Below, piece after piece: positions 3,571 through 49,204 of a DNA stretch of 64,000 nt. The position numbers were made by a program, and so were the translations under genes. Positions within the stretch are counted from its first letter, which is position 1. The number at the start of each line of letters is the position of its first letter. Origin of the DNA: Candidatus Eiseniibacteriota bacterium (GTDB lineage: Bacteria; Eisenbacteria; RBG-16-71-46; CAVPCR01); the NCBI GenBank assembly GCA_963823555.1, contig CAWGMA010000001.1, forward strand, positions 1,216,050 to 1,280,049, written 5' to 3'. The notes beneath the pieces are model-generated. The model searched no databases, was not told where the DNA came from, and saw only the letters and a list, made by a program, of their open reading frames with translations.

Positions 3571-5244
3571 ATGAGCCAGGGAGCAGGCGGAACATCGACC
3601 AGGACGCGGCGCTCGCGCCCCGGCGCCGCTCTCATGCTCGGCGACATGGAGTATGGGCGCGCCTTCACGGGGCTCGCCACGGGCGATCCGACTCTCGATG
3701 GATTCCTGCCGCTGCTCCGCGATCTGCACCGGGGCGCGGCTCGCCGCCGGGAGGCCATGGTCGATCCGGGTCGCGGACCCCTCTGGGACGCGGTCGAGGC
3801 GCTCGCCGAACGCTGTCAGGCGCCCCCGGCGACCCGCCCTGCCCTGGCATCGCTCAGGGCTGGGGCTCCGGTCGTCTGCACCGGCCAGCAGCCCGGTCTC
3901 CTCGGCGGGCCCATCTTCATCCTGTACAAGGCGGCGACAGCCATTCACCTCGCCCGCGATCTCGAGCGCGCGCTGGGTGAGCCCGTGGTGCCCATCTTCT
4001 GGGTGGCCGCCGATGATTCCGATTTCAAGGAGGTCGCGCGAGCCACGCTGGCCACGGCCGACCTGAAGCTCGAAACGGTGGCCATCGACCCCGCACTCGA
4101 GGATCCCACGCGCATGGTGGGCGGCCTTGCGGTGACGGCGGGCCGGGATGCGGCGCGGAATGCGGCGCAAGCGACGTCCGGGCTTCCTTACGCTGCGCTC
4201 CTGTCCGAGCTGGCCGGAGCGACATGGGAACGGGGCCGGGACTGGGGCGAGGGATTCGCCGCCGTACTCTACGCTCTCCTTGGCGAGCATGGCCTGGTCG
4301 TGGTCGATGCCCGCGAGCCCGTGCTGCGCGATCTGGCTCGGCCTCTCCTCACGCGCTATCTCGATGATGTGGCTGGGTACGCGCAAGTGGTCGATCGTGC
4401 CGGCGAGGCGCTGGCGGCAGACGGGCTTGGCCGTCAGCTCGGGACCTTCGCCGCGCGCTTTCCGCTCTATGAGGAAGAGCCGCCGTATCGCCTCCGCCTG
4501 GCCGACCCCGGAGGCGGGGAGGAGCACTTGGCGAGCTTCGCGACGCGAGCCCGCGCGGTCATGTCTCGTGGCGGCGCACTGTGGACGGGCGTTGCGCTGC
4601 GCCCGCTCGTCGTGGACACGACCCTGCCGGTCGTGGCCCGCGTGCTCGGTCCGGCCGAGGTGGCGTACATGGCGCAGCTGTCCGGTGCCTACGCCCATCT
4701 GGATGTGGTGATGCCGCCGCTGGTGCCCCGCCTGACGGGAACGCTGGTCCCGGCTCGGTCCGCACGGGTGGCGGCCGCCACCGTGGGTGGGCTTCCGGCC
4801 CTGGTCCGCGACCCCGCGGCCACGCTTTCGGCCTACTACAAGCGTCAATTGCCGCTCCCGGCGCGGCGTGCGCTCGAGGAGCTCGAGGGCAGCCAGCGCG
4901 CCGGCTACGCTCGGGCGCGCGAGGCGCTCGCGGCTCTCGGCCGGGGGCTCGACCAGCTCGTCGACTCGGTCGCGACCAAGGCCGACTTCCAGCTCGCGCG
5001 ATTGTGGCAAGCCGCCATCAAGCGCGAGAGGAAGAAGCGCGAAGCGGATGAACCCTTCCTGCGCCACCTCGCCCCCTTCCTGCGTCCTGATCAGGGACTG
5101 CAAGAAAGGCGGCTGGCCACGCTCTCGGCGCTGGCTCTCGCCGGGCCGGGTCTGGTTTCGCGTGCGCTCGAGATGGCGGAGTCCGATCTCGCTCTGCTGC
5201 GCGCCGGGCGCGGTGAGCATCACCTCCTGGAATTTGACCCATGA
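3571..5244 (+). CDS. bshC: bacillithiol biosynthesis cysteine-adding enzyme BshC
   Basis: VVCTGQQPGLLGGPIFILYK...PVVPIFWVAADDSDFKEV matches the BshC signature (VVGGQQAGLLTGPLYTIHK...VIPIFWVAGEDHDLDEI). Alternative starts at 3634 or 3646. Confidence 0.8.
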   Translation: MSQGAGGTSTRTRRSRPGAALMLGDMEYGRAFTGLATGDPTLDGFLPLLRDLHRGAARRREAMVDPGRGPLWDAVEALAERCQAPPATRPALASLRAGAPVVCTGQQPGLLGGPIFILYKAATAIHLARDLERALGEPVVPIFWVAADDSDFKEVARATLATADLKLETVAIDPALEDPTRMVGGLAVTAGRDAARNAAQATSGLPYAALLSELAGATWERGRDWGEGFAAVLYALLGEHGLVVVDAREPVLRDLARPLLTRYLDDVAGYAQVVDRAGEALAADGLGRQLGTFAARFPLYEEEPPYRLRLADPGGGEEHLASFATRARAVMSRGGALWTGVALRPLVVDTTLPVVARVLGPAEVAYMAQLSGAYAHLDVVMPPLVPRLTGTLVPARSARVAAATVGGLPALVRDPAATLSAYYKRQLPLPARRALEELEGSQRAGYARAREALAALGRGLDQLVDSVATKADFQLARLWQAAIKRERKKREADEPFLRHLAPFLRPDQGLQERRLATLSALALAGPGLVSRALEMAESDLALLRAGRGEHHLLEFDP

Positions 5245-5978
5245 AATGCGTTGCCTTCGGTGCTCATCCCGATGATGTCGAGCTCGCGGCCGCTGGCACC
5301 CTGGCCCTGACCGTCCAGGCCGGGCATGACGTCCTGATCGCGGATCTGACCCAGGGGGAGCGAGCCACCGCCGGCAGCCCGGAGGAGCGAGCGGCGGAAG
5401 CCGCCGCTGCCGCTCGCGTGCTGGGAGTCCGGCGCTCGGGACTCGAGCTTCCCGACACCGCGCTCGACCGGGCGGACCAGAGTCAGCTCGAGCGCGTGGT
5501 CCAAGTCCTGCGACGCGAGCAGCCCGATCTCGTGCTCGCCCCGACCGGCCGCGACGCGCATCCCGATCATATCGAGGCTCATCACCTCGTCAGCCGGGCG
5601 GTCTTCCTCGCCGGGCTTGCCGGGTTCGCCCCGGAGGCCGGGGCGCCGCACCGGACTTCGCTCGTTCTCTTCTATCCATCATCGCGTGAGATGTTCGGCC
5701 GCCCGGACCTGATCGTCGACATCAGCGCGGTCATCGATCGCAAGATGGCCGTGCTCGCGTGCTACACGTCCCAGTTCATCCGCGTCCGGGGCGGGCTGGT
5801 GACCCCGCTCAACGCCCCAGGCTTCCTCGAGCGTGTCAAGGCGCGGGCGGCTGCTGTCGGTATCGATCGCGGCATCGAGCATGGAGAACCCTTCTTCCTG
5901 GACCGCCCACTGACCACGACGGATCCGCTGCGGCTCCTTGCGCTCACGGCGCCGGGTGGAGATGGAGGAACGTCATGA
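5241..5978 (+). CDS. bshB: N-acetyl-alpha-D-glucosaminyl L-malate deacetylase BshB (LmbE/PIG-L family)
   Basis: LmbE motif AHPDDVELAAAGTL...HPDHIEAH. ATGA overlap with the bshC stop. Confidence 0.8.
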   Translation: MKCVAFGAHPDDVELAAAGTLALTVQAGHDVLIADLTQGERATAGSPEERAAEAAAAARVLGVRRSGLELPDTALDRADQSQLERVVQVLRREQPDLVLAPTGRDAHPDHIEAHHLVSRAVFLAGLAGFAPEAGAPHRTSLVLFYPSSREMFGRPDLIVDISAVIDRKMAVLACYTSQFIRVRGGLVTPLNAPGFLERVKARAAAVGIDRGIEHGEPFFLDRPLTTTDPLRLLALTAPGGDGGTS

Positions 5979-7132
5979 CCCTGGGGCCGCTTGCGATCGG
6001 CATCACCTGCTACCCGACCACCGGTGGCTCGGGGATCGTGGCCACCGAGCTCGGGAAGCGTCTGGCCCGCCGCGGCCACAGCGTGCACTTCATCACCCAC
6101 GCGGTGCCGGTGCGGCTCCGCCAGTTCGAGGAGCGGATCTCCTTCCATCCCGTCGAGACCGAGAGCTATCCGCTGTTCAGTCACCAGCCCTACGCGCTCA
6201 ACCTGGCCGCCAAGATGAGCGAGGTCATCGAGCGCGAGCGCCTCGATATCCTGCATGTCCACTACGCGCTGCCGCATGCGGTGAGCGCCTACCTCGCCAA
6301 GCAGATCGTCCGACCTCGCGAAGTCAAGGTGATCACGACGCTCCATGGCACGGACATCACGCTGGTCGGCCTCCAGCCGTCGTTCTTCAGCGTCACCAAG
6401 TTCTCGATCGAGCAGTCCGACGCCGTGACCGCGGTCTCCGCCTGGCTCCGGGACCAGACAGTCCAGAGCTTCGGCGTCCGCACCCCGATCCATGTCATTC
6501 GCAACTTCGTCGACTCGGCCCGCTTCGCTCCCGGCCGCGACGAGCGGCGGCGCCTGGCGTTCGCGCGACCGGAGGAGGTGCTGCTGATGCACGCCTCCAA
6601 CTTCCGCCCGGTCAAGAACACGCCGCGCGTGATCGAGGTCTTCCATGCCGTGGCCGAGGCGGTACCGGCCCGGCTCCTGCTCGTGGGGGAGGGGCCCGAG
6701 CTTCCCGCCTGTCGCGACCTGGCCTCGGAGTTCGGTCTCGGCGATCGCATCACCTTCATGGGGGATCAGGAGTACATCGAGGCGCTGCTGCCGGTCGCGG
6801 ATATCTTCCTCCTGCCGTCCGATCACGAGAGCTTCGGGCTCGTCGCGCTGGAGGCGATGAGTTGTGGGGTCACGGTGGTGGCGACGCGAGTCGGCGGCAT
6901 GTCCGAGGTCATCACCGACGGCGAGACCGGCTTCCTGCTGGATCCCGGCGATGTGGCGGGGATGTCCGCGCTCACGATCGCGCTGGCGCGGGATCCGGAG
7001 CGCAGGGCCCGGGTGGCGGCGGCGGCCCGCAACGAGGCGGTGCAGCGCTTCGACATCGATGCCGCCGTCGATCACTACCTCGATCTCTATGCGGCGCTTC
7101 TCAGCGGGACGCTGCCGGGCGCCGGAGGATGA
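5975..7132 (+). CDS. bshA: N-acetyl-alpha-D-glucosaminyl L-malate synthase BshA (GT4 glycosyltransferase)
   Basis: GT4 fold with EGFGLVALEAMSCGVTVVATRVGG motif and BshA-like N-terminus (ITCYPTTGGSGIVATELGKRLARRGH). ATGA overlap with bshB. Confidence 0.85.
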   Translation: MTLGPLAIGITCYPTTGGSGIVATELGKRLARRGHSVHFITHAVPVRLRQFEERISFHPVETESYPLFSHQPYALNLAAKMSEVIERERLDILHVHYALPHAVSAYLAKQIVRPREVKVITTLHGTDITLVGLQPSFFSVTKFSIEQSDAVTAVSAWLRDQTVQSFGVRTPIHVIRNFVDSARFAPGRDERRRLAFARPEEVLLMHASNFRPVKNTPRVIEVFHAVAEAVPARLLLVGEGPELPACRDLASEFGLGDRITFMGDQEYIEALLPVADIFLLPSDHESFGLVALEAMSCGVTVVATRVGGMSEVITDGETGFLLDPGDVAGMSALTIALARDPERRARVAAAARNEAVQRFDIDAAVDHYLDLYAALLSGTLPGAGG

Positions 7133-20222: not shown

Positions 20223-22256
20223 ATGTTTGAAGAATTCTTTCAGCTGCGCGAGAACCCTTTCGCTCTCGCCCCCAACCCGCGTTTCATCTTTCACAGCCAC
20301 GAGCACTCGGAGGCGCTGGCCCACCTGCGCTACTGGGTGGAGAACGGCGAAGGCTTCGTGCTGATCACGGGCGAGGTCGGGACCGGCAAGACGACGGCCC
20401 TCTTCGATCTCATCGCCCAGCTGCCGACCGACTGCGCGGTGGCCTTCGTGGCCAACTCGACGCTCACCATTCCGGAGCTGCTCGAGGAGATCTGCCGGCG
20501 ATTCGGGCTCGAGGTTCCACCTGCGGCTTCCAAGCCGGCCCTGCTCGGGCTCCTGGAGAAGTACCTGTCCGCCCGGATCGAGCGCGGTCTGGGTTCGCTG
20601 CTCATCCTCGATGAGGCCCAGAACTTCGAGGGACAGGCGCTCGAGGAGATCCGGCTGCTCTCCAACCTCGAGCGCATGGATGGCAAGCTGATCCAGATCG
20701 CTCTGGTTGGACAGCCCGAGCTGGAACGCAAGCTCGCCCGGCCCGAACTCCGGCAGCTCAGGCAACGCATCGGAATCCGCTATCGCCTGGGTCCCCTCAG
20801 CGAAGAGGAGACGCTTCACTACTTGCACCACCGCATCACCGTGGCAGGAGGGGATGCCACGATCATCATCCCGGAGGCTACGGCGGCGACGATCCACCGG
20901 CTCACCCACGGCATCCCGCGCGAGATCAACATCGTGGCGAGCCAGGCCCTGATCAACGCCTTCGTGGCCAGCGCCTCATGCGTCCTTCCCGAGCACGTGC
21001 AGTCCGTCGTGGATGACTTCGAGTGGGCCTCGATCTTCGGGGATGAGATACCGCCCCCCAGGGCGCGCCTCGGCCGGCAGGCAGCCGAAGACACGAGACC
21101 AGGCCCGGCTCCTGGAGGCCCGGCCACAACGCGGGTGACGCGCCCCGAGCCACGACCGGAACCGCCGCGAGCGGCCCCGAGGCCTGAGATCTCACGGCCG
21201 TCCGCTCCGGCACCGAGGCCGGTCCCGCCGGTTCCACCCGCCGCCCGGCCGGTCACCCAGCGGCCTGCAGCCGACGCCCGTCCGGGAGCTCCCCAGCCGC
21301 CGCAGGGACCGGCCGCCATGACGCCCGGAGGAGTTCACGGCAGTGACCGCGCGGCGGCCCCGCCACCCCACGAGAGATCCCGGCAGGAAAGCGGAAGCCA
21401 CCAGGCGGGAGAGGGCGGCGATGCGGAGCACCGGGGCCGCCCTCCGCTCGGCGTGGTGATTGGTGGTGGTGTCGAGCCGAGACGCGAGGGGATCCCGGCG
21501 AGCGGGGAGCCAGAGGTGGCATCTCGGCGCCGCGAGGCAGCGCCGGCCCACGTGCCGGGTCAGGCCGCGGCGGCGGGCCGCCCGGCCGGGCGCGGAGCGG
21601 GGGGGACGGAAGCCCCATGGTTCGACTCGCTCACCGATGCGCCGGTCCGGCGTCGCTGGCCGCTTGTTCTGGCTGTCATCCTCATCGCGGCTGGAATCGT
21701 CAGCGTTTTCTTCTGGCAATTCGGCATCGTGATCACCCGGGCGCCGGAGCGGGACCGCGCCGAGATGGTGACCGGCACGCGGGAGTCGGATCCGGCGGAG
21801 ACAGCCCCTCGCACGGAGGTTGCCGAGATGGCGCGAGGAACGGTTGGCGGCGCCGATCCTTCGGCAGCGCCTCCTCGGGGAAATCGAGATCGCGAGGACG
21901 CAGCTGCGATGGCAGGGGAACCCGCTGCGGCACCTTCGGAGACACCCCCGGCGGTCCCGGATGGAATCTCCACCCCCGAATCGCGAACCCATGCTCGCCC
22001 GGGCGGCGCGGGGCCCTACACCATCCAGCTCGAGTCGTTCATCGACGGCGACGCCCAGGTGGTCGAGCGCACGCGGGCCTACTGGATCCAGCTGCTCGGC
22101 GGTCCGATCGAGATCGTCGAGGCGGATGTCGAGGGCGATCTGTGGCACCGCGTCCTCTTCGATCGCTTCGCGTCGGAAGAGGAAGCCCGGGAGCTCCTGA
22201 CCAGGCTCAAGGCCGGAGGCAACGTGCGTGACGATGCCATGGTGACGCTGCGCTGA
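20223..22256 (+). CDS. ExeA/GspA-like AAA+ ATPase with Pro-rich linker, single TM helix and C-terminal SPOR domain
   Basis: N-terminal 270 aa matches ExeA/MshM (FVLITGEVGTGKTTAL Walker A, LILDEAQNF Walker B, IPREINIVASQAL). TM segment WPLVLAVILIAAGIVSVFFWQFGIV. C-terminal YTIQLESF...WHRVLFDRFASEEEARELLTRLK is SPOR-like. Confidence 0.75.
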   Translation: MFEEFFQLRENPFALAPNPRFIFHSHEHSEALAHLRYWVENGEGFVLITGEVGTGKTTALFDLIAQLPTDCAVAFVANSTLTIPELLEEICRRFGLEVPPAASKPALLGLLEKYLSARIERGLGSLLILDEAQNFEGQALEEIRLLSNLERMDGKLIQIALVGQPELERKLARPELRQLRQRIGIRYRLGPLSEEETLHYLHHRITVAGGDATIIIPEATAATIHRLTHGIPREINIVASQALINAFVASASCVLPEHVQSVVDDFEWASIFGDEIPPPRARLGRQAAEDTRPGPAPGGPATTRVTRPEPRPEPPRAAPRPEISRPSAPAPRPVPPVPPAARPVTQRPAADARPGAPQPPQGPAAMTPGGVHGSDRAAAPPPHERSRQESGSHQAGEGGDAEHRGRPPLGVVIGGGVEPRREGIPASGEPEVASRRREAAPAHVPGQAAAAGRPAGRGAGGTEAPWFDSLTDAPVRRRWPLVLAVILIAAGIVSVFFWQFGIVITRAPERDRAEMVTGTRESDPAETAPRTEVAEMARGTVGGADPSAAPPRGNRDREDAAAMAGEPAAAPSETPPAVPDGISTPESRTHARPGGAGPYTIQLESFIDGDAQVVERTRAYWIQLLGGPIEIVEADVEGDLWHRVLFDRFASEEEARELLTRLKAGGNVRDDAMVTLR

Positions 22257-22308: not shown

Positions 22309-22335
22309 ACAATAATTGTCAGTAACAACTATTGT
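22309..22335. promoter_or_regulatory. pair of AT-rich 11-bp palindromes ACAATAATTGT / ACAACTATTGT between convergent gene ends
   Basis: Perfect palindrome at 22309-22319 and a near-repeat at 22325-22335. Locally AT-rich in a high-GC genome. The second copy overlaps the stop of the STT3-like gene. Confidence 0.3.
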
Positions 22336-24176
22336 ACTTGGGGCGCCACCGCGTAGATGAGGTGGGGTCCGGCGCGGAAGCGTGGCGCGAAGGAGGCCAG
22401 GTCCTGCGGGTGTGCGATGAGCCGGACGTAGTTCGTGCGCGCGCCGCGGGCGGTCGGCTGCTGGCCGGTCCAGTAATCGGTGAAGCGGCGTCCGGCATAG
22501 GCGGCGTTGATGCCGCGCTTCTCCGCCGGCACCCACAGGTAGGTGGCGCGGTGCGCCCGGCAGAGGGCGAGCAGCGTGGCTTCATCCTCGGCATAGAGGG
22601 CGGTCGCGAAGTCCGCGATGCCGCGCCGCATCGCCGGGATCTCGAGCAGTCCATCCGTGACCGTGGGGATCCCGGAGACGAGCTGGATCGCGTAGCCATA
22701 GCCCCAGTCGCCGAGGACGATGTCGCCGGGACGAGCATGATCGCGGAGCCAGTGTAGGGCGGCATTCGTTTCCGGCGCGCGACGCGCAGGCAGGACCGCG
22801 ACCAGGCGGCGGGCGTCGTTCGCGGTCCACAGGAGCCCGCCCACGGCGATCGCGGTCGCGGCGAAGGCGGCGATCGGCCGGCGGTGGCGCCGGGGACCCT
22901 GCCCCTGCGCGCGCCAGGCGCCGGCGACGAGGAGGGCGGGATAGAGCGCAAGCAGGGGGCCGGCGAGCACCTTGTTGCGAGCGAAGAGCAGGGTGAGGAT
23001 GAAGAAGACCGCCGTCGCCGCCTGCCATAGCCGGAAGCCCGCACCCGTTCCGGAGTCCGCGATGAACGGCCTCCGCCGCGGCATGCGGCGTCCCAGGACA
23101 TACAACGAGAGCAAGGGGATGAGAGCCGAGAAGTAGTCGGCATCGACGAGATGCGCCGGTCTCGGCGAGTCCATCTCGGCATTGGTGGCGAGCAGCACCG
23201 CGCCGATGTCGTTCCCGCCGAAGCCCAGTTTCTGCGCGATCGCTCCGCCCACGCTGTCGTACGAGGACGGTGCGGCGGCAACGATGCTCGCCATGATGGC
23301 GAACGCCGCCAGGGCGATACGGAGCGCGAGGTGCCGTTGCTGGGGCCGTACCTCGGGGCCGAAGCGGGTGAACACGAGGGCGAGGACGATCGCGGAGAGG
23401 GCGAGGATCCCGGTACGACTCAGAGCGAACGGCTCGGCGCGGAGGTAGGGGACGAGAGGCGAGAGCGCCATCACCAGGATGAGGGATGGCAGGATCGCGA
23501 TCACATGCCGCCGCCGCAGGCGGTCGGCGGCGAGGAGGACGAGGAGCCCGATCGACTCGAGAGCGACCAGAATGAGGGGCACGCGCCAGGCGAGGACGGC
23601 GGTACCCAGACAGAGGGCGGCGGCTGCGCTCGCCATGTTGAGAGTGCGCGGTCTCGACGCGGAGAGGGCTGCGGCCAGAGCGGCGAGGTGCCCGGTCAGG
23701 AGGAGCGCGCCGAGCGCGTCGTAGCGCAGCCAGTGGCCCGCCGTGCGGTGGACGTGCGCGGGGCAGACGGCGGCGAAGGCCGCGGCGAGGAGCGCCGGTC
23801 CCCGGCCGAGACCGAGTGCGCGCGCGGCGATGTAGAGCGGCACCGCGATCATCGCCCCGCTGAGGGCGATGAAGAGAACCGCCGCCATATCGAGGTCCAG
23901 ATCGAGACCGAGCGTGCGAAGCGCGCGGTGCCAGAAGGCGACCGCCGGATAGAGCAGGGTCGGGAGGAACTCCGGAATCGGCTTCCCGTAGGGCGCCAGC
24001 CCGAGGGGATCCACGGCGGGAACCTGTCCGGTCGCTTCCACGGCGGCCGTCATGCGGATGTGGAAGGCAGGATCGAAGTCCCACTCGACGCCGCCGGCCT
24101 GGCGGACCGGCTCGAGGCGCAGGAGCGTGCCGCCAGCGACGATGGCGACGAGGCCGATGAGGGCCAGGGCCCGCAT
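22329..24176 (-). CDS. STT3/AglB/PglB-family oligosaccharyltransferase-like polytopic membrane protein with divergent WWDYG motif
   Basis: About 13 TM helices followed by a soluble C-terminal domain. EL1 motif WDFDPAFHIRM (cf. STT3 EFDPYFNYR). TIXE-like LLATNAEMD. GDWGYGYAIQLVSGIPTVTDG (cf. PglB [21 protein letters not shown]). Start taken at MRALALIG (24176); alternative M at 24188. The ORF extends to 24419 through a low-complexity basic region. Confidence 0.5.
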   Translation of the reverse strand: MRALALIGLVAIVAGGTLLRLEPVRQAGGVEWDFDPAFHIRMTAAVEATGQVPAVDPLGLAPYGKPIPEFLPTLLYPAVAFWHRALRTLGLDLDLDMAAVLFIALSGAMIAVPLYIAARALGLGRGPALLAAAFAAVCPAHVHRTAGHWLRYDALGALLLTGHLAALAAALSASRPRTLNMASAAAALCLGTAVLAWRVPLILVALESIGLLVLLAADRLRRRHVIAILPSLILVMALSPLVPYLRAEPFALSRTGILALSAIVLALVFTRFGPEVRPQQRHLALRIALAAFAIMASIVAAAPSSYDSVGGAIAQKLGFGGNDIGAVLLATNAEMDSPRPAHLVDADYFSALIPLLSLYVLGRRMPRRRPFIADSGTGAGFRLWQAATAVFFILTLLFARNKVLAGPLLALYPALLVAGAWRAQGQGPRRHRRPIAAFAATAIAVGGLLWTANDARRLVAVLPARRAPETNAALHWLRDHARPGDIVLGDWGYGYAIQLVSGIPTVTDGLLEIPAMRRGIADFATALYAEDEATLLALCRAHRATYLWVPAEKRGINAAYAGRRFTDYWTGQQPTARGARTNYVRLIAHPQDLASFAPRFRAGPHLIYAVAPQVQ

Positions 24177-24207
24177 GCCGCCGGGCATCGGGCGCGTCAG
24201 CGGCGGC

Positions 24208-24714
24208 TCACGGGCAGCCCTGCTGTCCCGTGGCTGCAGTGCGGAACGTGGTCTGCGCACTCGTCTCGAGTTCCCGGCCATCCTGGTTGCGGGCGATGAT
24301 GAAGTTGAAGGTGTAATTGGTCGAGGGGAGGAAGTCGAAGGGGAGTCCGAGCGTGCGCTCGGTGCCCGGGATCGGCTGACCGCTCGCGCTCGTCTCCGGG
24401 TTGGAGAGGAAGACCGCATTCACGTCGAGCGCCGCTCCTGGTTGCAGGGTGGCAAGGAAGTAGCGTGGGGCCTCGTCGTCGTATACCGCCGTGGTATCGA
24501 GCGGGCTGTTGAATGTGACATAGATCGTATCCCGGCAACTCGCGTTCTGACTTCCGGCCGTGGGCTCGACGAGCACGACGCGGAAACTCTCCGTGACGTT
24601 GGGACCGCCTCCCTCGTCGCAGCCCGGTGCGACCATGAGGACTGCGGCTGTTGCAGCCAGGATCGAGGCGATGATCATCCATCGCCGCTCAGAGAAGCGG
24701 GTATCTGCCTTCAT
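24208..24714 (-). CDS. small secreted protein (signal peptide, Cys right after the h-region), hypothetical
   Basis: MKADTRFSERRWMIIASILAATAAVLMVAPGCDEGGG signal. Mature part has three N-x-S/T sequons (NVT, NAS, NYT). Sits between pabC and the STT3-like gene on the same strand. Confidence 0.55.
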   Translation of the reverse strand: MKADTRFSERRWMIIASILAATAAVLMVAPGCDEGGGPNVTESFRVVLVEPTAGSQNASCRDTIYVTFNSPLDTTAVYDDEAPRYFLATLQPGAALDVNAVFLSNPETSASGQPIPGTERTLGLPFDFLPSTNYTFNFIIARNQDGRELETSAQTTFRTAATGQQGCP

Positions 24715-24757
24715 GCTCTCTCCTCTTATCGTTCGCGATGCAGAAGAATCCGAAGGG

Positions 24758-25645
24758 TCACCCTTCGACCTCGGCGGCGAGGACCTCGGCATAGGATGCG
24801 CGTAGGGCGAGCGTCACCGGGCCCGGGACTCGAGGTCCCAGGGAACGCCCGTCGACGCTCTCGACGGCACGGATTCCGGCCACGGAACCGGTGGCGAACA
24901 TCTCCGTCGCTGCGCGCACCTCCGCCGTGGCCACGGCCCGCTCCTCGACCCGCATCCGGGCTGCCCGGGCCAGCTCGATCACCAGATCGCGCGTGACACC
25001 CGCCAGCAGGCCCTGGTCCTTGGGAGGAGTGACGATGATGCCCTCCCGCACCAGAAAGACGTTGGCCGCCGTCGTTTCCTTGACCCAGCTCTCGTACACC
25101 AGGAGCGCCTCATCCGCTCCCGCGCTCACGGCCTCCGCGGCGGCGAGAACGTAAGGCAGGTGGTTCAGCGATTTCAAGCTGGCCCAATCTGCCGGTCGCG
25201 GAGCCGCGAGGGCCACGGAGGCGAGGCGGATGGGGCGCGGGTCCGAGGGGGGAGCTCCAGGCGGCAGGGGCTCGACCTGCGCCAGACACGTGGGCCTGGC
25301 AGTGGCCGGGGGCACGGCCAGCCCCGAATCGGGCCCGCGGGTGACGAGGAGGCGGAGCCGGCCTTCTCCCGCCTCGAGGCCGTTCAGGCGCAGGAGCTCG
25401 GTCAGGGCCGGGGCCGGAAAGGCGGCTGCCGGGGCCAGATCCAGCCGCAAGAGCTCGAGCCCCTGGGTCATGCGGGCGAGGTGTTCCTCGAGACGGACGA
25501 TGCGCCCGCGGTGGATCCGGAGCGTCTCGTAGAGCCCGTCGCCGTAGCGCAGGCCACGGTCCCGCGGGCTCACGCGAATCGCCGTCTCGGGGACGATCTC
25601 GCCGTTCCAGAGCCAGAAGGTCTCGCTCGCCGCCGTGGGGATCAT
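24758..25645 (-). CDS. pabC: class IV aminotransferase (4-amino-4-deoxychorismate lyase PabC / BCAT-like)
   Basis: Fold-type IV PLP enzyme motifs (LRYGDGLYETL..., VFLVREGIIVTPP..., GVTR). ATGA overlap with pabB. Confidence 0.7.
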   Translation of the reverse strand: MIPTAASETFWLWNGEIVPETAIRVSPRDRGLRYGDGLYETLRIHRGRIVRLEEHLARMTQGLELLRLDLAPAAAFPAPALTELLRLNGLEAGEGRLRLLVTRGPDSGLAVPPATARPTCLAQVEPLPPGAPPSDPRPIRLASVALAAPRPADWASLKSLNHLPYVLAAAEAVSAGADEALLVYESWVKETTAANVFLVREGIIVTPPKDQGLLAGVTRDLVIELARAARMRVEERAVATAEVRAATEMFATGSVAGIRAVESVDGRSLGPRVPGPVTLALRASYAEVLAAEVEG

Positions 25646-27147
25646 CTTGCTCCTTCCACCGCCTGGGGGCGGACCGGAGCCGGGGTGTCCGCGGTCTGGA
25701 ACGCTGCCAGCACCTGGGCAAATTGCCGCGCCTTGTCGCAGGTTTCCGCGTACTCGCTGTCGGCATCCGAGTCGATGACGATGCCGCCGCCGACGCGGTA
25801 CTCGACCTCCCCGGCGGCGATCGTGGCCGTGCGGATAGTGATCGCCAGGTCGAGGTCGCCGCCGGCGTCCCAGTAGCCGACCGCACCGGTGTAGAAGCGC
25901 CGGGGTTCGCCCTCGAGCTCGCGCAGGATCTCGATCGCCCGGATCTTGGGCGCGCCCGTGATCGAGCCGCCGGGGAAGGTGGCCCGGATGAGATCGACCG
26001 TTCCGGTCCCCGGCCGGGCGATCGCATGCACGGTCGAGACCAGGTGATGGACGGCCGGGTAGCTCTCGACGGCGAAGAGGGGATCGACGCGGACCGTGCC
26101 GGGGATGCTGACCCGTCCCAGATCATTGCGCTCGAGATCCACGATCATCACGTGCTCGGCCCGATCCTTGGCGCTCGCGCGCAGGCGTTCCAGCTCGACG
26201 TGGTCGGCGGCGGGATCGGCGCCGCGCGGGCGCGTGCCCTTGATGGGCGCGGTCTCGAGGTGATCGCCGCGCCGGGAGAGGAAGCGCTCCGGGGAGAAGC
26301 TCAAGACCGCGACCGAGCCGAGATCCAGGTAGGCGCCATGCGGAACGCGACCATGACGGCGATGCGCGAGAAAGAGCGCCAGGGGCGGGGCGGACCAGGG
26401 GGCGCGCAGCGCTCGCGACAGATTCACCTGATAGATGTCCCCGGCGACGAGGTGGTCGCGGATCCGGGCGATGGCCGAGCGGTACGCGGGCGATGGCCCA
26501 TCGCCCGCGCCTGGTGCGAGATCGGTCAGCGGCGATGTCATCGCTGGAAGATCGACGGGGGGCTCCGCCATTGCGGCCGCTTCCACGGCGGCGGCCACGT
26601 CGTTTCCCCGGAGGGTGGTCATGACGCCCGAGATGGGGCGTCCCCGCCGCGGCTCGCGGCCGGCCACGAAGGCGCGGTCGTGCGCCTCATCGAGGACCAG
26701 GACGGAGTCGTAGAACGCCGCTGCGAGATCGGGAATGCGGGCCTCTGTGCGGTGCCCGTGAACAGGGGGCAGGCGTTCGATCCAGTCGGCGAGCTCGAAG
26801 CCGAGGGCGAGCACCGCCCCCGAGGCCCAGGGCACGCCGGGCGGCGTGCCTCCCGGCCGGGCTTCGGCGGCGAGGGCCGCCTCGAGGGCGCGTAGCGGGT
26901 CGCCCGTGGCGCATGACGTGGCGATGATGCCGCGCCCTGGATCCCAGCGCTCCTCGACCAGTTGGTCCCCGTAGGCGAGGAGAACGCGGTGGGGGTTCCA
27001 GGTGAGATAGCTCATGGCTCCGCGCGGCGTCACGCCCCCGTCCCCGTCGAGCCAGACGGGATAGCGAGCTCGAGCGGCATGTTGCGCCAGCCGGGCTGAA
27101 TCCGGCAGGGCCGGCAGTCGATGCAGGAAGGGACGCGGGGACGACAT
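25642..27147 (-). CDS. pabB: aminodeoxychorismate synthase component I (chorismate-binding enzyme)
   Basis: GDIYQVNLS, ERFL...IKGT, FPGGSITGAPKIRAIEIL and GAVGYWD motifs. Start at MSSPRPF (27147); the ORF extends to 27309. Confidence 0.8.
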   Translation of the reverse strand: MSSPRPFLHRLPALPDSARLAQHAARARYPVWLDGDGGVTPRGAMSYLTWNPHRVLLAYGDQLVEERWDPGRGIIATSCATGDPLRALEAALAAEARPGGTPPGVPWASGAVLALGFELADWIERLPPVHGHRTEARIPDLAAAFYDSVLVLDEAHDRAFVAGREPRRGRPISGVMTTLRGNDVAAAVEAAAMAEPPVDLPAMTSPLTDLAPGAGDGPSPAYRSAIARIRDHLVAGDIYQVNLSRALRAPWSAPPLALFLAHRRHGRVPHGAYLDLGSVAVLSFSPERFLSRRGDHLETAPIKGTRPRGADPAADHVELERLRASAKDRAEHVMIVDLERNDLGRVSIPGTVRVDPLFAVESYPAVHHLVSTVHAIARPGTGTVDLIRATFPGGSITGAPKIRAIEILRELEGEPRRFYTGAVGYWDAGGDLDLAITIRTATIAAGEVEYRVGGGIVIDSDADSEYAETCDKARQFAQVLAAFQTADTPAPVRPQAVEGAR

Positions 27148-30610: not shown

Positions 30611-31507
30611 ATGACACGCAGGGCAGTTGGCGCGCTATGCGTCGTGGTCCTGGCGGCCGCGCTTGCATCAGGCTTCGTTCTCTCCATGCCTGCCATCGCC
30701 CAGAATCTTGTCTACAACGGCGATTTTGAGTACGGCAACCAGGGTTTTGTGTCCGAATACTCCTATTCGCCCGGTAACATCTGGGCCGCGAGGACCTACG
30801 ACATCGTCACTGATCCTAGCCACTCGCATCCGTACGCCGTTTCCTATGGTGATCACACCACGGGTTCTGGCCTGATGATGGCCGTCAATGGCGCCACGGA
30901 CGGCGGGTCCGTAGTCTGGTCGCAGACAATCCCGGTGGCCCCCGGGTCTCGATATGTTTTCTCCATCTGGCTCTCCTCTTGGGTCGAGGACTCGCCAGCG
31001 CAACTCGACCTGCGCTTCAACGGCCAGCCTGCGGGGATGATCTCCGCTCCTATGACCACCGCGCTCTGGGAGCGATCGGAGAGAACTTGGGACTCGGGCG
31101 GCAACACCACGCTGGTCATCAGTATTGTCGATAGAACCACCGCCTTCGGAGGAAACGACTTCGCCCTGGATGATCTATCGATGACTCTCGCCGAACCGGC
31201 AGCCGCAACCGGAGAGCCTCAACCGTCGGTTCTTCCCTCCGTCCGTGCATTCCCGAATCCGACAAGTTCGCACACGAGCCTGGCCATCACGGGAGTCCCC
31301 GCTACCTCGTGCCGTGTCGACATCTACTCTGTAACCGGGATTCTGGTTCGAAGCCTAGCTTGCTCGGCTGGCGGAGCCGGAGAGGAGGTGGTCATGCTAC
31401 CGTGGGACGGACGAAATCGGGACGGTCAACCTGCGGCGCGTGGCGTCTACCTGGCTCGACTTCACGAGTATCCGACAGTTGAAGCCAAGATCGTCTTGGT
31501 TCATTAG
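30611..31507 (+). CDS. secreted CBM-like (galactose-binding-like jelly-roll) protein with T9SS C-terminal sorting domain
   Basis: Signal peptide. NGDFEYGNQGF...W...ALDDLSM resembles CBM4/9/DUF642 sugar-binding modules. C-terminal AFPNPTSSHTSLAI...VDIYSVTGILVRSL...WDGRNRDGQPAARGVYLARL...KIVLVH matches the Por/T9SS CTD (TIGR04183-like). Confidence 0.65.
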   Translation: MTRRAVGALCVVVLAAALASGFVLSMPAIAQNLVYNGDFEYGNQGFVSEYSYSPGNIWAARTYDIVTDPSHSHPYAVSYGDHTTGSGLMMAVNGATDGGSVVWSQTIPVAPGSRYVFSIWLSSWVEDSPAQLDLRFNGQPAGMISAPMTTALWERSERTWDSGGNTTLVISIVDRTTAFGGNDFALDDLSMTLAEPAAATGEPQPSVLPSVRAFPNPTSSHTSLAITGVPATSCRVDIYSVTGILVRSLACSAGGAGEEVVMLPWDGRNRDGQPAARGVYLARLHEYPTVEAKIVLVH

Positions 31508-38368: not shown

Positions 38369-39955
38369 GTGGCTCAGACCGGCTCGTCAGCGGCGGTCGG
38401 GGGAGAGAAGAAGGGCGGGGTGAATACCGTGCCCATCGCCATCCTGGATTTCGGTTCGCAGTATGCGCAGCTCATTGCCCGGCGCGTGCGCGAGCGGCAC
38501 GTGTACTGCGAGATCCTGCGCCACGACACGCCGCTGGCCACCCTCAGGGAGAAGGGTGTGGAGGGCATCATTCTCTCCGGAGGTCCGGCGAGCGTGCTCT
38601 CGCCCCAGGCGCCCCGGCCGGATCCCGAGATCCTTGCCTCCGGGCTCCCCATTCTCGGTCTCTGTTACGGCATGGAGATCGTGACCCTCATGCTCGGCGG
38701 CCGCATCGAGCGGTCGACGATGCGCGAGTACGGGCTCTCCCGTCTCGAGGTCGAGAGCGAGGGCGAGGTCCTGGCCGGGCTCAAGGCGTTTCCGGCCTGG
38801 ATGAGCCACGGCGATTCGGTGGTCGAGCTGCCCCCGGATCTGGTTCCACTCGGTCGCACCGGCGACTGCCGTTTCGCGGCATCCCGCCACCGGACCCGGC
38901 CCATCTTCCTCCTCCAGTTCCACCCTGAGGTGGCCCATACCGAGGACCAGGGGAAGATCCTCGACAACTTCCTGTTCCGGATCTGCCGGCTCGAACCCGG
39001 CTGGACCATGGAGAATTTCGCGGCCGCGGCGGTTCAAAGCATCAAGGCGCAGGCGCCGGAGGGGACGGCCATCTGCGCCCTGTCGGGAGGCGTCGACTCC
39101 TCGGTGGCGGCCGTCCTTGCGGCGGAGGCCCTGGGGGCGCGGCTCGTGTGCATCTTCGTCGACCACGGGCTCCTGCGGGCCGGCGAGGCGGAGATGGTGA
39201 CGCACGAGCTCGAGGAACGCTTCCATCTCAACGTGCACCACGTGGACGCCTCGAACCTCTTCCTGTCCCGGCTGGCCGGGATCGAGGATCCGGAGGAGAA
39301 ACGCAAGCGCATCGGCGCCGCCTTCATCCAGGTCTTCGAGGACGAGGCGCGCCATCTCGACGATGCGCGCTATCTCGTGCAGGGGACCTTGTATCCAGAC
39401 GTGATCGAATCGGCGGCGGCCGGCGGGCCGGCGGCCACCATCAAGAGTCATCACAACGTGGGCGGGCTGCCGGAGAAGATGGGTCTCAAGCTGATCGAAC
39501 CCTTGCGCGAGCTCTTCAAGGACGAGGTGCGGGCGGTGGGGCGGGTGCTCGCGATCCCCGAGTCGGTGATCGGGCGACATCCGTTCCCCGGACCGGGGCT
39601 CGCCGTGCGTGTGATCGGTCCCGTCGATCGCGAGAGCCTCGAGGTGGCGCGCCGCGCCGATGCCATCTTCATCGAGGAGCTGCGCACGAGCGGGCTCTAC
39701 GATGCAGTCTGGCAGGCCTTTGCCGTACTCCTGCCGGTGAAGACGGTCGGCGTGATGGGAGACGAACGCACCTACGAAGAGGTGATCGCGCTGCGCGCCG
39801 TGAACTCCACCGACGGCATGACGGCGGACTGGGCGCGGCTGCCGGTGGATTTCCTCGGCCGCGTCGCCAATCGCATCGTGAACGAAGTCAGGGGCGTGAA
39901 CCGCGTCGTCTATGACCTCTCCTCCAAGCCCCCTGCCACCATCGAGTGGGAGTGA
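38369..39955 (+). CDS. guaA: GMP synthase (glutamine-hydrolysing)
   Basis: GTG start after GGGAGGAGG. GATase1 (LGLCYGME, HPE). ATP-PPase SGGVDSS P-loop. C-terminal dimerisation domain ending ...PPATIEWE. Confidence 0.9.
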   Translation: MAQTGSSAAVGGEKKGGVNTVPIAILDFGSQYAQLIARRVRERHVYCEILRHDTPLATLREKGVEGIILSGGPASVLSPQAPRPDPEILASGLPILGLCYGMEIVTLMLGGRIERSTMREYGLSRLEVESEGEVLAGLKAFPAWMSHGDSVVELPPDLVPLGRTGDCRFAASRHRTRPIFLLQFHPEVAHTEDQGKILDNFLFRICRLEPGWTMENFAAAAVQSIKAQAPEGTAICALSGGVDSSVAAVLAAEALGARLVCIFVDHGLLRAGEAEMVTHELEERFHLNVHHVDASNLFLSRLAGIEDPEEKRKRIGAAFIQVFEDEARHLDDARYLVQGTLYPDVIESAAAGGPAATIKSHHNVGGLPEKMGLKLIEPLRELFKDEVRAVGRVLAIPESVIGRHPFPGPGLAVRVIGPVDRESLEVARRADAIFIEELRTSGLYDAVWQAFAVLLPVKTVGVMGDERTYEEVIALRAVNSTDGMTADWARLPVDFLGRVANRIVNEVRGVNRVVYDLSSKPPATIEWE

Positions 39956-39960
39956 CCCGG

Positions 39961-42930
39961 ATGCCCGATCGACTCGGGGCGGCTGAAGCCGCCGGTCTCG
40001 TCCTCGCGGCGGTGCTCTGCTGCGGCGTCCCGCAGAGCGGAGCCATGCCGCTGCATCCAAGCGTCGCCGAGAACCTGGCCAAGAGGGGAGAGCTCGAGTC
40101 GTTCGCTCGGGAGCAGGCGGACCTCCAGGCCAAGGGCCTCGATCGTCCGGCGCGGGCCAAGCTCGGGAGTCATCGCGCCTCGGGGATGCACGTCGCGGTC
40201 CTCATCGTCGACTTCAGCGACAACCCGTGGCAGATCGAGCCCGCCTACACGCCGGACCATTATGACGATCTCCTCTTCTCGCGTGGCACCCATTCCACCG
40301 GGAGCCTGCGCGACTACTATCTCGAGAACTCCTACGAGGTCTTCGATCTGACCGGGCAGGTCTCGGGCTGGCATCGCATGCCGCAGACCTACGCTTACTA
40401 CGTCGATGGCAAGCGCGGCACACGGGGCAACTATCCGCGCAACGCCCAGAAGCTGGTCGAGGATGCCGTGCGCCTGGCCGACGCTCAGGATCCGACGCTC
40501 GATTGGCGCCAGTTCGACAACGACGGTCCCGACGGCATTCCCAGCTCCGGGGATGATGACGGCACGGTGGACGGACTCATCGTCATCCATGCCGGTCCGG
40601 GTTACGAGGAAACAGGCAACCCCAACGACATCCACTCGCACTACTGGAACGTGGTCGACGAGGACCTCGAAGTCGACGGCGTGCGCATCTTCAACTACAT
40701 GGTCGACCCGCAGAACGGACGCACCGGGGTCTTCGCGCACGAGTTCGGCCACAACATCGGTCTCGTCGACCTCTACGAGACCGATGGCGGGACCTCGAGC
40801 GTCGTGGGCGTGTGGTCGGTGATGTCGCTCGGGGCCTGGCTCTCGGCCACGGGTGGGGCGTTCGGGCCGGGCTCGGGCACGCGGCCGTCGCATCTCGATG
40901 CCTGGTCGAAGGTCGCCGCGGGTTTCCTCGAACCGGTCGACGTGTCGGCGAACGCCGTCCAGCGAGTCCTTGCCCCGTCGGAGACCAGCTCGGAGATCCT
41001 CCGCCTGTGGACCAATGGATCGGAATCGAACGAGTACTTCCTGGTCGAGAACCGGGCGCCCATCGGTTTCGACCGCGCTTTACCGTTCGCCTCGACCACG
41101 ATCGGTGGCTTCCTCGTCTGGCACGTCGATGAGGACGTGGCGACCAACGATGATGCGGCGCATCCTCGGGTTGCCCTCGAGCAGGCCGATGGCCGTTTCG
41201 ACATCGAGTCGAACCGCAACTACGGAGACGCCGGCGATCCGTTCAGCCTGGGCGATGCGTTCACCATGGCCTCGCTACCCTCGAGCCGGAGCTATGGCCT
41301 CGAGGACACCCAGGTGCGCGTGGAGAACATGCGGCTCGTGAGCGGCGCCACCTTCGCGGCCGATATCACCGTGGAGACTGCGCCCGCCGTGCGCAAGGTG
41401 CGCCTCATCGTCCGGGATGAGAGCGGCAATGGAGACGGCGGCCTGGACGCGACCGAGCAAGGCCAGATCGAGGTCGAGATCCAGAACATCGGGCTCGATG
41501 CCCGCAGCCTCGAGGTCCAGCTCGTGAGCCTCGACCCCCTCGTGACCATCGCCGGCGGTCCCCTCGCGGCCGGGGACGTGGCCGCCGATGCCGCCCTCAC
41601 GGTGCCCGGAGCCTTCTCCTTTCTCGTGTCGGAGCTGCCGGAAGATCCCTATCCCGTCATGCTGCGTCTCGACTACTCGGCGGCCGGCTACACGGCGAGC
41701 GAGGATGTGGTCGTGATGGCCGGAGACGTGATCGGCTTCGCCGCGAGCTTCGAGAGCGGGGAGGCGGGCTTCGTCCACTCCGGCGGCCGGCCGGGTTATC
41801 GCGATACGTGGCACGTCGCCCCGGGCGCCGGTCGCAACGGCCGGAGCGCCTACCGCTGTGCGCCGCCGGATTCGATCGCCTACGCCAATCTCACCGACGC
41901 CCGGCTCGACTCACCGTATTTCTCGCTCGATGGGACCTGCCGCCTCTTCCTGTGGCATACGATCGACGCCGAGGTGGATGTGGCCACGCGGGCCTGGGAC
42001 GGTGGGCTCGTGGAGCTGTCCGTGGACGGCGGGCCATTCACGGCGATCACGCCGGTGGGTGGCTATCCCTACCGCATCATCCGGAACTCGCAGAGCCCGA
42101 TCGCGGACCGGGAGGTCTTCTCGGGGACGACCAGCGGTTTCGAGCAGGTCGAGTTCGACCTCGCCGGTCTCACGGGCGCCGCTCGCCTGCGTTTCCACTT
42201 CGGTTCCGACGGCTCGATCACGCAGCGAGGCTGGGTGGTGGACGAGGTCACGGTGGTCTCGCCGGCCGAGCCCTACGCGGTGACCTTCCTCACGCCGAGC
42301 GTGGATGCCGGGGGGCAGGTCCTGGTCGATTTCGAGGTGCAGGAGTTCTTCCCCGAGCTGCCCTACGCGGGACGGGGCTTCAGGGTCCACCGCCGCGCGG
42401 AGAGCCCGACCTTCCCCCTCAAGATGGCGGGGGCCACGGGAGTCCCCGATGGCTACGAGCTTCTGACGCCGGCCCCGTTGCCGCCGGACGCGAGCTACCT
42501 GGACACCGACGTCCGCCCGGCGGAGATCTTCGCGTACCTCCTCGAGGATCTGCGCGAGGAGGGGGAGGCGTCCCGATTCTACGGCCCGCGCACGGTCTAC
42601 GTGCCCGGAGGACCGGCGTCAGCCCGGATCGTGCGGGCGGTGCCCAGCGTGTTCGAGCCGGCCCAGTCGCCGACGACTCGTATCGAGTTCCTCGTGCCTC
42701 CGGGCTCGGGCCGGAACGTTGCCGCCGCCGTGCCGGTCAAGCTCTCCGTGTACGATCTGTCGGGCCGGCAGGTCGCGACCCTGGTCCATGAGGACCGGTT
42801 GCCGGGCAAGAACGTGGCCGAATGGAACGGCGTCGGCTCCCGCGGTTTCGCGGCCCCCTCCGGTGTCTACTTCCTCCGACTCGAGGCGGGGGAGGAGACG
42901 GCCGGTCGGCGGCTCGTGCTCCTGCGTTGA
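39961..42930 (+). CDS. M6-family (immune inhibitor A-like) secreted metalloprotease with T9SS C-terminal sorting domain
   Basis: Signal peptide. HEFGHNIGLVDLYE zincin motif within an InhA-like catalytic domain. Long beta-rich middle region. C-terminal VKLSVYDLSGRQVATLV...GVYFLRLEAGEETAGRRLVLLR is a Por/T9SS CTD. Confidence 0.75.
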   Translation: MPDRLGAAEAAGLVLAAVLCCGVPQSGAMPLHPSVAENLAKRGELESFAREQADLQAKGLDRPARAKLGSHRASGMHVAVLIVDFSDNPWQIEPAYTPDHYDDLLFSRGTHSTGSLRDYYLENSYEVFDLTGQVSGWHRMPQTYAYYVDGKRGTRGNYPRNAQKLVEDAVRLADAQDPTLDWRQFDNDGPDGIPSSGDDDGTVDGLIVIHAGPGYEETGNPNDIHSHYWNVVDEDLEVDGVRIFNYMVDPQNGRTGVFAHEFGHNIGLVDLYETDGGTSSVVGVWSVMSLGAWLSATGGAFGPGSGTRPSHLDAWSKVAAGFLEPVDVSANAVQRVLAPSETSSEILRLWTNGSESNEYFLVENRAPIGFDRALPFASTTIGGFLVWHVDEDVATNDDAAHPRVALEQADGRFDIESNRNYGDAGDPFSLGDAFTMASLPSSRSYGLEDTQVRVENMRLVSGATFAADITVETAPAVRKVRLIVRDESGNGDGGLDATEQGQIEVEIQNIGLDARSLEVQLVSLDPLVTIAGGPLAAGDVAADAALTVPGAFSFLVSELPEDPYPVMLRLDYSAAGYTASEDVVVMAGDVIGFAASFESGEAGFVHSGGRPGYRDTWHVAPGAGRNGRSAYRCAPPDSIAYANLTDARLDSPYFSLDGTCRLFLWHTIDAEVDVATRAWDGGLVELSVDGGPFTAITPVGGYPYRIIRNSQSPIADREVFSGTTSGFEQVEFDLAGLTGAARLRFHFGSDGSITQRGWVVDEVTVVSPAEPYAVTFLTPSVDAGGQVLVDFEVQEFFPELPYAGRGFRVHRRAESPTFPLKMAGATGVPDGYELLTPAPLPPDASYLDTDVRPAEIFAYLLEDLREEGEASRFYGPRTVYVPGGPASARIVRAVPSVFEPAQSPTTRIEFLVPPGSGRNVAAAVPVKLSVYDLSGRQVATLVHEDRLPGKNVAEWNGVGSRGFAAPSGVYFLRLEAGEETAGRRLVLLR

Positions 42931-46115: not shown

Positions 46116-49204
<3,089 letters not shown>

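Follow-up and report, generated by a model that had tools for sequence, protein, structure and literature searches.

The subject of this analysis is a gene on the minus strand of a 64,000-nucleotide stretch of a Candidatus Eiseniibacteriota genome (contig CAWGMA010000001.1; the whole stretch is called the window here, and its G+C content is ~69%). The gene encodes an STT3-like glycosyltransferase of the GT-C type and lies behind pabB, pabC and a gene for a predicted lipoprotein on the same strand (Table 1). Its product has 619 residues when read from the first of two ATG codons and 615 from the second; the 615-aa form is used for residue numbering, and the motif coordinates were verified by translation. 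The 619-aa form is identical to a database protein (P0001), the same protein is found in two further samples, and all relatives in the genome collection come from metagenome-assembled genomes (MAGs) of Candidatus Eisenbacteria.

Table 1 Genes and motifs at the STT3-like locus (EL, external loop; ORF, open reading frame)
Feature	Coordinates	Strand	Details
STT3-like GT-C glycosyltransferase gene	22329..24188	-	619 aa from ATG 24188, 615 aa from ATG 24176
EL1 motif EWDFDPAFHIR, residues 31-41	24054..24086	-	HMMER alignment to STT3; D35 and R41 invariant in 32 diverse clade members
EL2 motif WLRYDALG, residues 149-156	23709..23732	-	D153 aligned to first acid of STT3 'YDNE' / PglB DxD
EL5 motif ATNAEMD, residues 330-336	23169..23189	-	E334, counterpart of the TIxE/SVSE glutamate
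FARNKV, residues 398-403	22968..22985	-	R400 invariant in 32 diverse members; aligned with Arg in both comparison profiles
DWGYGY, residues 490-495	22692..22709	-	In register with WWDYGY (HMMER)
DGLLE, residues 508-512	22641..22655	-	D508-G509 common to all STT3/PglB ('VDNN'/'IDGG')
Predicted lipoprotein gene, one Ig-like (Big_5-type) domain	24208..24714	-	168 aa; Pfam Big_5 19.8 bits, below cutoff
pabC, class IV aminotransferase-fold, most simply aminodeoxychorismate lyase	24758..25645	-	Pfam Aminotran_4 177 bits
pabB, aminodeoxychorismate synthase component I	25642..27147 (ORF open to 27309)	-	TIGR00553 330.6 vs cutoff 328.4

Family membership and fold

Sequence profiles and structure agree on the family. 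The Pfam STT3 model (PF02516) matches residues 34-274 with 36.1 bits against a gathering score of 24.5 (E 7e-9), and a phmmer search of all PDB sequences returned only eukaryotic STT3 subunits (STT3A/B and yeast STT3; E 1e-6 to 7e-5). A profile built from 17 homologs reached STT3A at E 7e-18; the match is in two stretches, and the WWDYG region falls in the second. The AlphaFold2 model, computed with the family alignment as input (pLDDT 91.8, pTM 0.91), has polytopic helices as far as residue ~461 and then an alpha/beta domain (468-615) that is similar to the minimal domain of AfAglB-S2 (3VU0). The nearest structures to the whole model are human STT3B (6S7T) and A. fulgidus AglB-L (3WAJ). Human and yeast STT3 match with TM 0.81 and a second figure of 31.5 (574 residues, 2.9 Å), AglB with 0.74 and 27.9, DPY19 with 0.79 and 25.0, PglB with 0.63-0.66 and 23.5, and ArnT and PMT with at most 0.41 and 18-21. 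The product is a genuine STT3 relative, and the STT3 architecture that the original prediction had read from the sequence is borne out by both lines of evidence. An assignment to GT39 (PMT) or GT83 (ArnT), which that prediction had named as the competing outcome, is ruled out by the fold and by the Pfam match. Of the two profile checks proposed with it, PF02516 was positive and the STT3-PglB_core model (PF21436) was negative, with no match at E<=0.1 for the window protein and weak matches in 3 of 32 diverse clade members. Pfam Dpy19 (PF10034) likewise gave no match for the window protein at E<=0.1, and NCBIfam TIGR04154 gave 32.3 bits against a cutoff of 450.

Active-site residues and the replaced sequon reader

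The acidic and basic residues of the STT3 active site can be followed through the alignments. D35, in the first-loop acidic motif picked out originally as WDFDPAFHIRM, aligns with the Asp of STT3 FDPYFNYR in HMMER alignments, and we take it to be the counterpart of that residue and of PglB D56. D153 is Asp or Glu in 72 of 79 full-length relatives, and the position two residues on is Leu in the window protein (L155). E334, in the motif ATNAEMD that had been described as TIXE-like, lines up with an invariant Glu ('TVAEH') of canonical WWDYG relatives and lies in a clade consensus of V-x-E-L; R400 is presumably the counterpart of the pyrophosphate-binding Arg, PglB R375. Twelve positions (R20, D35, R41, D56, R144, W197, E334, R400, W491, G494, D508 and E512) are invariant in 32 diverse clade members with 20-52% identity to the query, which argues for purifying selection on an active site; four of them, D35, E334, R400 and G494 (with Y495), align with catalytic and donor-binding residues of PglB/STT3. 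The motif matches persist in an alignment with many homologs, where the original prediction had allowed that they might vanish.

The WWDYG region behaves differently. In STT3-type enzymes the WWD of this motif binds the hydroxyl of the +2 Ser/Thr, and a DK or MI motif contacts the +2 residue. The window sequence 'vlGDWGYGYaiq' stands in HMMER register with 'vmSWWDYGYqi' of STT3 and also with AWWDYGY of C. lari PglB, so that W491, G494 and Y495 are retained, the first Trp is replaced by Asp (D490) and the Asp by Gly (G492); the downstream T-x-x-D-G aligns with L-I-D-G of PglB. Both the D-W-G replacement and the resemblance of the downstream block to PglB had been recognised from the sequence, and both hold in these alignments. 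By alignment, the YLWV strand is not followed by a conserved DxxK or MxxI; in this segment, which is where STT3 has its DK motif, the window protein reads AEKRGINAAY and the wider clade PPxxxL. E512, four residues beyond D508, is invariant and specific to the W-x-x-G-Y clade, and recurs in a clade of bacterial Dpy19+TPR proteins.

A large clade with a W-x-x-G-Y signature

The non-WWD motif is the signature of a large clade and not local decay. This clade came to light only when 1.84 billion cluster representatives were scanned exhaustively with HMMER, since word-indexed searches returned 19 homologs with the gene and about 20 with a 32-sequence alignment; the scan gave 1,825 hits at E<1e-3, 672 at <1e-10 and 118 at <1e-30, the last being representatives of 50%-identity clusters. 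We collected 166 relatives for a motif census, 146 of which cover the motif. Among these, 109 lack the first Trp and read x-W-x-x-G-[YFHW] (third position G in 29, E in 26, D in 19 and S in 16), WWD occurs in 8, and the remaining 29 have other forms, mainly a Dpy19-like S-P. Canonical WWDYGYWIQ proteins appear in the scan only from E ~1e-36 downward. What had been described as a 'degenerate' WWDYG is thus no peculiarity of one gene, and the survey of DWGYG-type variants that had been suggested yields a clade-wide signature, x-W-x-x-G-Y-x-[IV]-Q ... D-G-x-x-E, in which conservation at the WWDYG position is confined to the second Trp, the Gly and the Tyr after it.

In the Eisenbacteria core clade (>=46% identity) the motif is G-D-W-G-x-G-Y, and in its Eisenbacteria outgroup P-W-[EQD]-x-G-Y, so the third-position acid was probably lost inside the core clade. 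A full-length open reading frame of the STT3-like gene is retained in many lineages, and outside Eisenbacteria at least one member comes from Kiritimatiellia. Pfam assigns 17 of 32 diverse members to STT3 and 6 to Dpy19 (best E 3.9e-8). Databases already label some members 'STT3 domain-containing', so the family assignment itself has precedent; the novelty lies in three points, namely that the sequon reader is lost throughout the clade, that the clade is intermediate between STT3 and DPY19, and that a lipoprotein gene is linked to the core-clade genes.

The upstream lipoprotein gene

The 168-aa protein encoded directly upstream has a lipobox (...LMVAPGC) with small residues before Cys32, a pattern that points to a lipoprotein, and Cys32 is invariant in its 29 orthologs, as are C60 and C167. 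Its AlphaFold2 model is a generic Ig-like beta-sandwich (pLDDT 73.7), with Ldt Ig domains, CopC and SbsC as the nearest folds. Homologs number only 29, all at least 49% identical. At least 10 of these 29 were judged, from contigs of equal length, to lie on the same contigs as core-clade STT3-like genes, and in 6 of the 6 sister loci examined the lipoprotein gene is the immediate upstream neighbour; more distant clade loci are without it. A small secreted protein encoded upstream of one distant member (L015) was considered as a possible homolog and rejected, as it has no similarity. The link between the lipoprotein and the STT3-like gene is real co-inheritance and does not run through N-x-S/T sites; the lipoprotein is a candidate partner or substrate of the STT3-like enzyme.

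Comparison with known GT-C systems

Among GT-C enzymes, STT3, AglB and PglB form GT66, DPY19 (C-mannosylation of tryptophan) GT98, PMT GT39 and ArnT GT83. With STT3/AglB/PglB the window protein shares the GT-C fold with a polytopic N-terminal and an alpha/beta C-terminal domain, together with D35, a 'D..P.G' element (window residues D56, P62 and G64), R144, D153, E334, R400, the G-Y pair and the downstream D-G. It differs from them in reading D-W-G for WWD (x-W-x across the clade), in having no recognisable DK/MI motif, in the Leu at the second acid of DxD/DxE, in the extra invariant E512, in a very short C-terminal domain of ~150 aa, and in the absence of an adjoining glycan-assembly cluster.

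In hhalign comparisons the clade scored 448.7 against a canonical WWDYG set (Pfam STT3 + STT3-PglB_core + AglB_core-like) and 455.2 against a set of bacterial proteins of ~800 aa that exceed the Pfam Dpy19 cutoff and end in tetratricopeptide repeats (TPRs; P0129, P0141, P0158 and others), which makes the original label 'PglB-like' too narrow. The clade has the EL5 Glu, W-x-x-G-Y and D-G in common with the canonical STT3-like proteins, and an EL1 acid, R400, an '...E-S' element after the second strand of the C-terminal domain and the invariant E512 in common with the bacterial Dpy19-like ones. In the latter, however, the EL5 Glu is not conserved and [FY]-x-x-S-P and H-x-K replace W-x-x-G-Y and D-G, whereas the window protein has neither a TPR domain nor a Pfam Dpy19 match. 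CeDPY19 (7ZLG) works independently of metal: its active site has one catalytic Glu, located in EL1, and lacks metal-binding acids. The enzyme is presumed to descend from an ancestor in common with STT3 (PMC10154233). The window protein, in contrast, keeps the acid set D35/D153/E334, and because this triad is retained an oligosaccharyltransferase-like mechanism is likelier than a DPY19-like one.

A third comparison is offered by the bactoprenol-phosphate three-component systems, in which a GT2 enzyme (GtrB, CsbB, ArnC or PgfS) is paired with a GT-C protein (YfhO, ArnT or PgfM). All of these GT-C enzymes are periplasmic and use a polyprenyl-linked donor, and some distant clade members lie beside such GT2 genes and YfhO-type GT-Cs; near the window gene and its close relatives, however, there is no such GT2 or flippase.

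Interpretation and competing explanations

We lean, with modest confidence, towards an active periplasmic glycosyltransferase of the STT3 lineage whose acceptor rule is not N-x-S/T, with the lipoprotein as the best candidate substrate or partner. Such an enzyme would be a single-subunit membrane GT-C protein with a catalytically competent active site on the periplasmic side, and would draw its sugar or glycan, as oligosaccharyltransferase does, from a polyprenyl-(di)phosphate carrier. From the residues retained we infer that the acid triad D35/D153/E334, with Arg400 and Tyr495, may support transfer to an acceptor in the periplasm, for which a protein side chain is the most probable candidate. 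Reading of N-x-S/T would not be expected, because both clamps for the +2 Ser/Thr, the WWD triad and the DK/MI motif, are missing; E512, in the loop after the W-x-x-G-Y helix, is a candidate for reading the acceptor in their place. The Ig-like lipoprotein, inherited together with the enzyme, heads the candidates for a dedicated substrate or an accessory subunit.

Several points weigh against this reading. A cluster for the assembly of a lipid-linked glycan was found neither in the 64-kb window nor in most related loci. The second acid of DxD/DxE is, by alignment, Leu in the STT3-like protein, and the equivalences of R400 with PglB R375 and of Y495 with PglB Y468 are presumed from alignment. By profile comparison the clade is as near to the bacterial Dpy19+TPR proteins as to canonical STT3-like proteins. 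The GT2/YfhO context of distant members points to polyprenyl-monophosphate sugars, possibly with non-protein acceptors, and the lipoprotein could be merely a lineage-specific neighbour. Lastly, we found no account of the W-x-x-G-Y clade in the literature that we searched on STT3-like, GT66, WWDYG-lacking, Eisenbacteria and bacterial DPY19 proteins. The 'new glycosyltransferase family' of PMC10584680 is not this clade, being YfhO-like, and Lombard 2016 describes bacterial AglB homologs as few and nested in euryarchaeal AglB (PMC4973528).

An alternative that we regard as unlikely but worth keeping in view is a monoglycosyltransferase of the DPY19/PMT/YfhO kind. Here a GT2 enzyme of the GtrB/ArnC/PgfS type encoded elsewhere would charge polyprenyl monophosphate with a single sugar, which the STT3-like enzyme would then pass on in the periplasm, either to an envelope polymer or, through an O- or C-linkage, to a protein. 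The Dpy19 matches of 6 of the 32 clade members, the equal hhalign affinity to the Dpy19+TPR set and the invariant E512 common to that set would all fit such an enzyme. So would the setting of two distant members of ~23% identity (P0114 and P0209), which are clustered with PgfS/ArnC-like GT2 and YfhO GT-C genes, and the otherwise solitary position of the gene, which is usual for enzymes that draw on a common polyprenyl-phosphate-linked donor. The GT2 context, however, comes only from those ~23%-identity relatives, and the window protein itself matches Pfam STT3 and not Dpy19, with STT3 and AglB as its best folds. It also retains the W-x-x-G-Y and D-G of the STT3 C-terminal core, as well as the EL5 Glu and the three-acid set of metal-dependent oligosaccharyltransferases, which the Dpy19-like clade is without (PMC10154233).

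Improbable in our view is the model implied by the original prediction, a conventional PglB-type N-oligosaccharyltransferase that acts on N-x-S/T, including the sites of the adjacent secreted protein. STT3 membership and the conserved catalytic residues would agree with it, and the neighbour, encoded directly upstream on the same strand, does carry three N-x-S/T sites, correctly counted at the time (N39, N57 and N133), along with a signal and lipobox. As an argument for glycosylation, however, these sequons fail: shuffled versions of the mature lipoprotein contain 1.39 on average, with a probability of 0.14 for three or more, and of the 29 orthologs 23 have site 133, 12 have site 39 and 4 have site 57, so that none is invariant, and one ortholog has no sequon at all. 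None of the three has D/E at position -2, which C. jejuni PglB is reported to prefer predominantly (PMC4894442). The WWD is D-W-G, no DK/MI equivalent is conserved, and there is no pgl-like cluster in the window.

An inactive relic or purely structural membrane protein, which the loss of the hallmark WWD and of the second DxD acid might suggest, is very improbable given the 12 invariant positions at 20-52% identity, which include every alignable catalytic residue, the full-length reading frame kept in many lineages, and a confident, STT3-like model.

Beyond the STT3-lineage reading that we favour, we put forward as a tentative and rather doubtful extension that the W-x-x-G-Y proteins are a third, so far unrecognised branch of protein-modifying GT-C enzymes between STT3 (N-glycosylation) and DPY19 (C-mannosylation). 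This branch would have its own acceptor code, read partly through E512 instead of WWD, and in the Eisenbacteria core clade the lipoprotein would be substrate or accessory subunit. STT3-type N-glycosylation in bacteria is known mainly from Campylobacterota and Desulfobacterota, and to our knowledge every characterised bacterial STT3-type enzyme carries WWDYG. A large clade that keeps the catalytic core and replaces the sequon reader implies protein or envelope glycosylation with a different acceptor rule; placed between STT3 and DPY19, it could show how acceptor specificity diverged within an enzyme lineage, and it could supply glycoengineering enzymes with new site preferences. The tight linkage of lipoprotein and STT3-like gene offers a concrete two-gene system, and, if the proposal is correct, the lipoprotein could be the first accessory subunit seen with an STT3-type enzyme of bacteria.

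Gene order and related loci

The four genes are tightly packed: pabB and pabC overlap by 4 nt, 43 nt separate pabC from the lipoprotein gene, and 19 or 31 nt separate the latter from the STT3-like gene. Chorismate_bind matches the pabB product with 284.5 bits, and all NCBIfam equivalog models are below their cutoffs on the pabC product. In the window a ComEC gene is divergent upstream and an ATPase gene convergent downstream, and pabB-pabC precede the lipoprotein/STT3-like pair in every core-clade locus. The whole neighbourhood is syntenic in the core clade, with ComEC upstream and the ATPase, PfkB, ArgRS, RsfS and polyprenyl synthase downstream; because this housekeeping block is conserved as well, the pabB-pabC linkage is weak evidence of shared function. 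Of the operon proposed originally, the close packing with gaps under 45 bp stands. A terminator-like hairpin (24750-24768, minus strand) lies across the pabC stop codon (24758), before the start of the lipoprotein gene; a promoter and terminator scan of the region gave nothing above chance, with one hairpin seen and 1.2 expected.

The convergent gene (20223-22256, plus strand) encodes an ExeA-like AAA_22 ATPase of 677 aa; besides its C-terminal SPOR domain, this protein has a transmembrane segment and a long linker rich in Pro and Ala. Together with the 'archaeosortase-associated' label of the best NCBIfam match of the STT3-like protein, a match of this ATPase to the XrtA/PEP-CTERM model TIGR03015 suggested a PEP-CTERM/exosortase link, which was rejected with both scores far below cutoff (259 against 324.5 bits for the ATPase, 32 against 450 for the STT3-like protein).

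Related loci vary in their surroundings. In one subclade (L003 11821-16601, L011 9872-12078, L012 9984-13435 and L013 3583-7034) the STT3-like gene is followed by a gene for a 348-374-aa protein without a Pfam match, with a 4-nt overlap in L003 and L011; a fusion of ABC_membrane, ABC_tran and Peptidase_S8 comes next in L003, L012 and L013, and the L011 contig ends earlier. The window is without this insertion. In an Eisenbacteria outgroup locus (L005 40-10840) the STT3-like gene overlaps by 4 nt, and is translationally coupled to, a gene for a 644-aa membrane protein with C-terminal TPRs, and genes for a DegT aminotransferase, LptE and an NAD-dependent epimerase lie nearby. Two distant clade members are solitary amid housekeeping genes. 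Other remote members, one of them Kiritimatiellia-like, lie amid YfhO GT-C genes and a PgfS/ArnC-like GT2 (L017 1034-11490 and L018 4533-16019); these clusters also hold PMT_2-like and LIC_10190-like membrane proteins and resemble a multi-GT-C periplasmic glycosylation locus.

The original statement that the window holds no glycan-assembly genes is essentially right, as the sole further glycosyltransferase is a GT4 protein (5759-7132). We considered this gene as a glycan-assembly gene and rejected it: it adjoins BshC and so is probably the bacillithiol enzyme BshA. The BshC gene (Pfam Rossmann-like_BshC, 178.7 bits) lies directly upstream of it on the plus strand (3571-7132 for the two), and with a histone-deacetylase-family gene (1840-2748) the group resembles a bacillithiol biosynthesis cluster.

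Elsewhere in the window, SecA domains are spread over at least three open reading frames in different frames between 46424 and 49204 on the plus strand (46424-47419, 47416-47829 and 48122-49204), which suggests frameshifts or assembly errors in the MAG. A FlgD_ig domain forms the end of two secreted proteins (30611-31507 and 39946-42930, both plus strand), of which one is a peptidase of the M6 immune-inhibitor-A type; this domain may be a lineage-specific C-terminal tag for sorting or anchoring.

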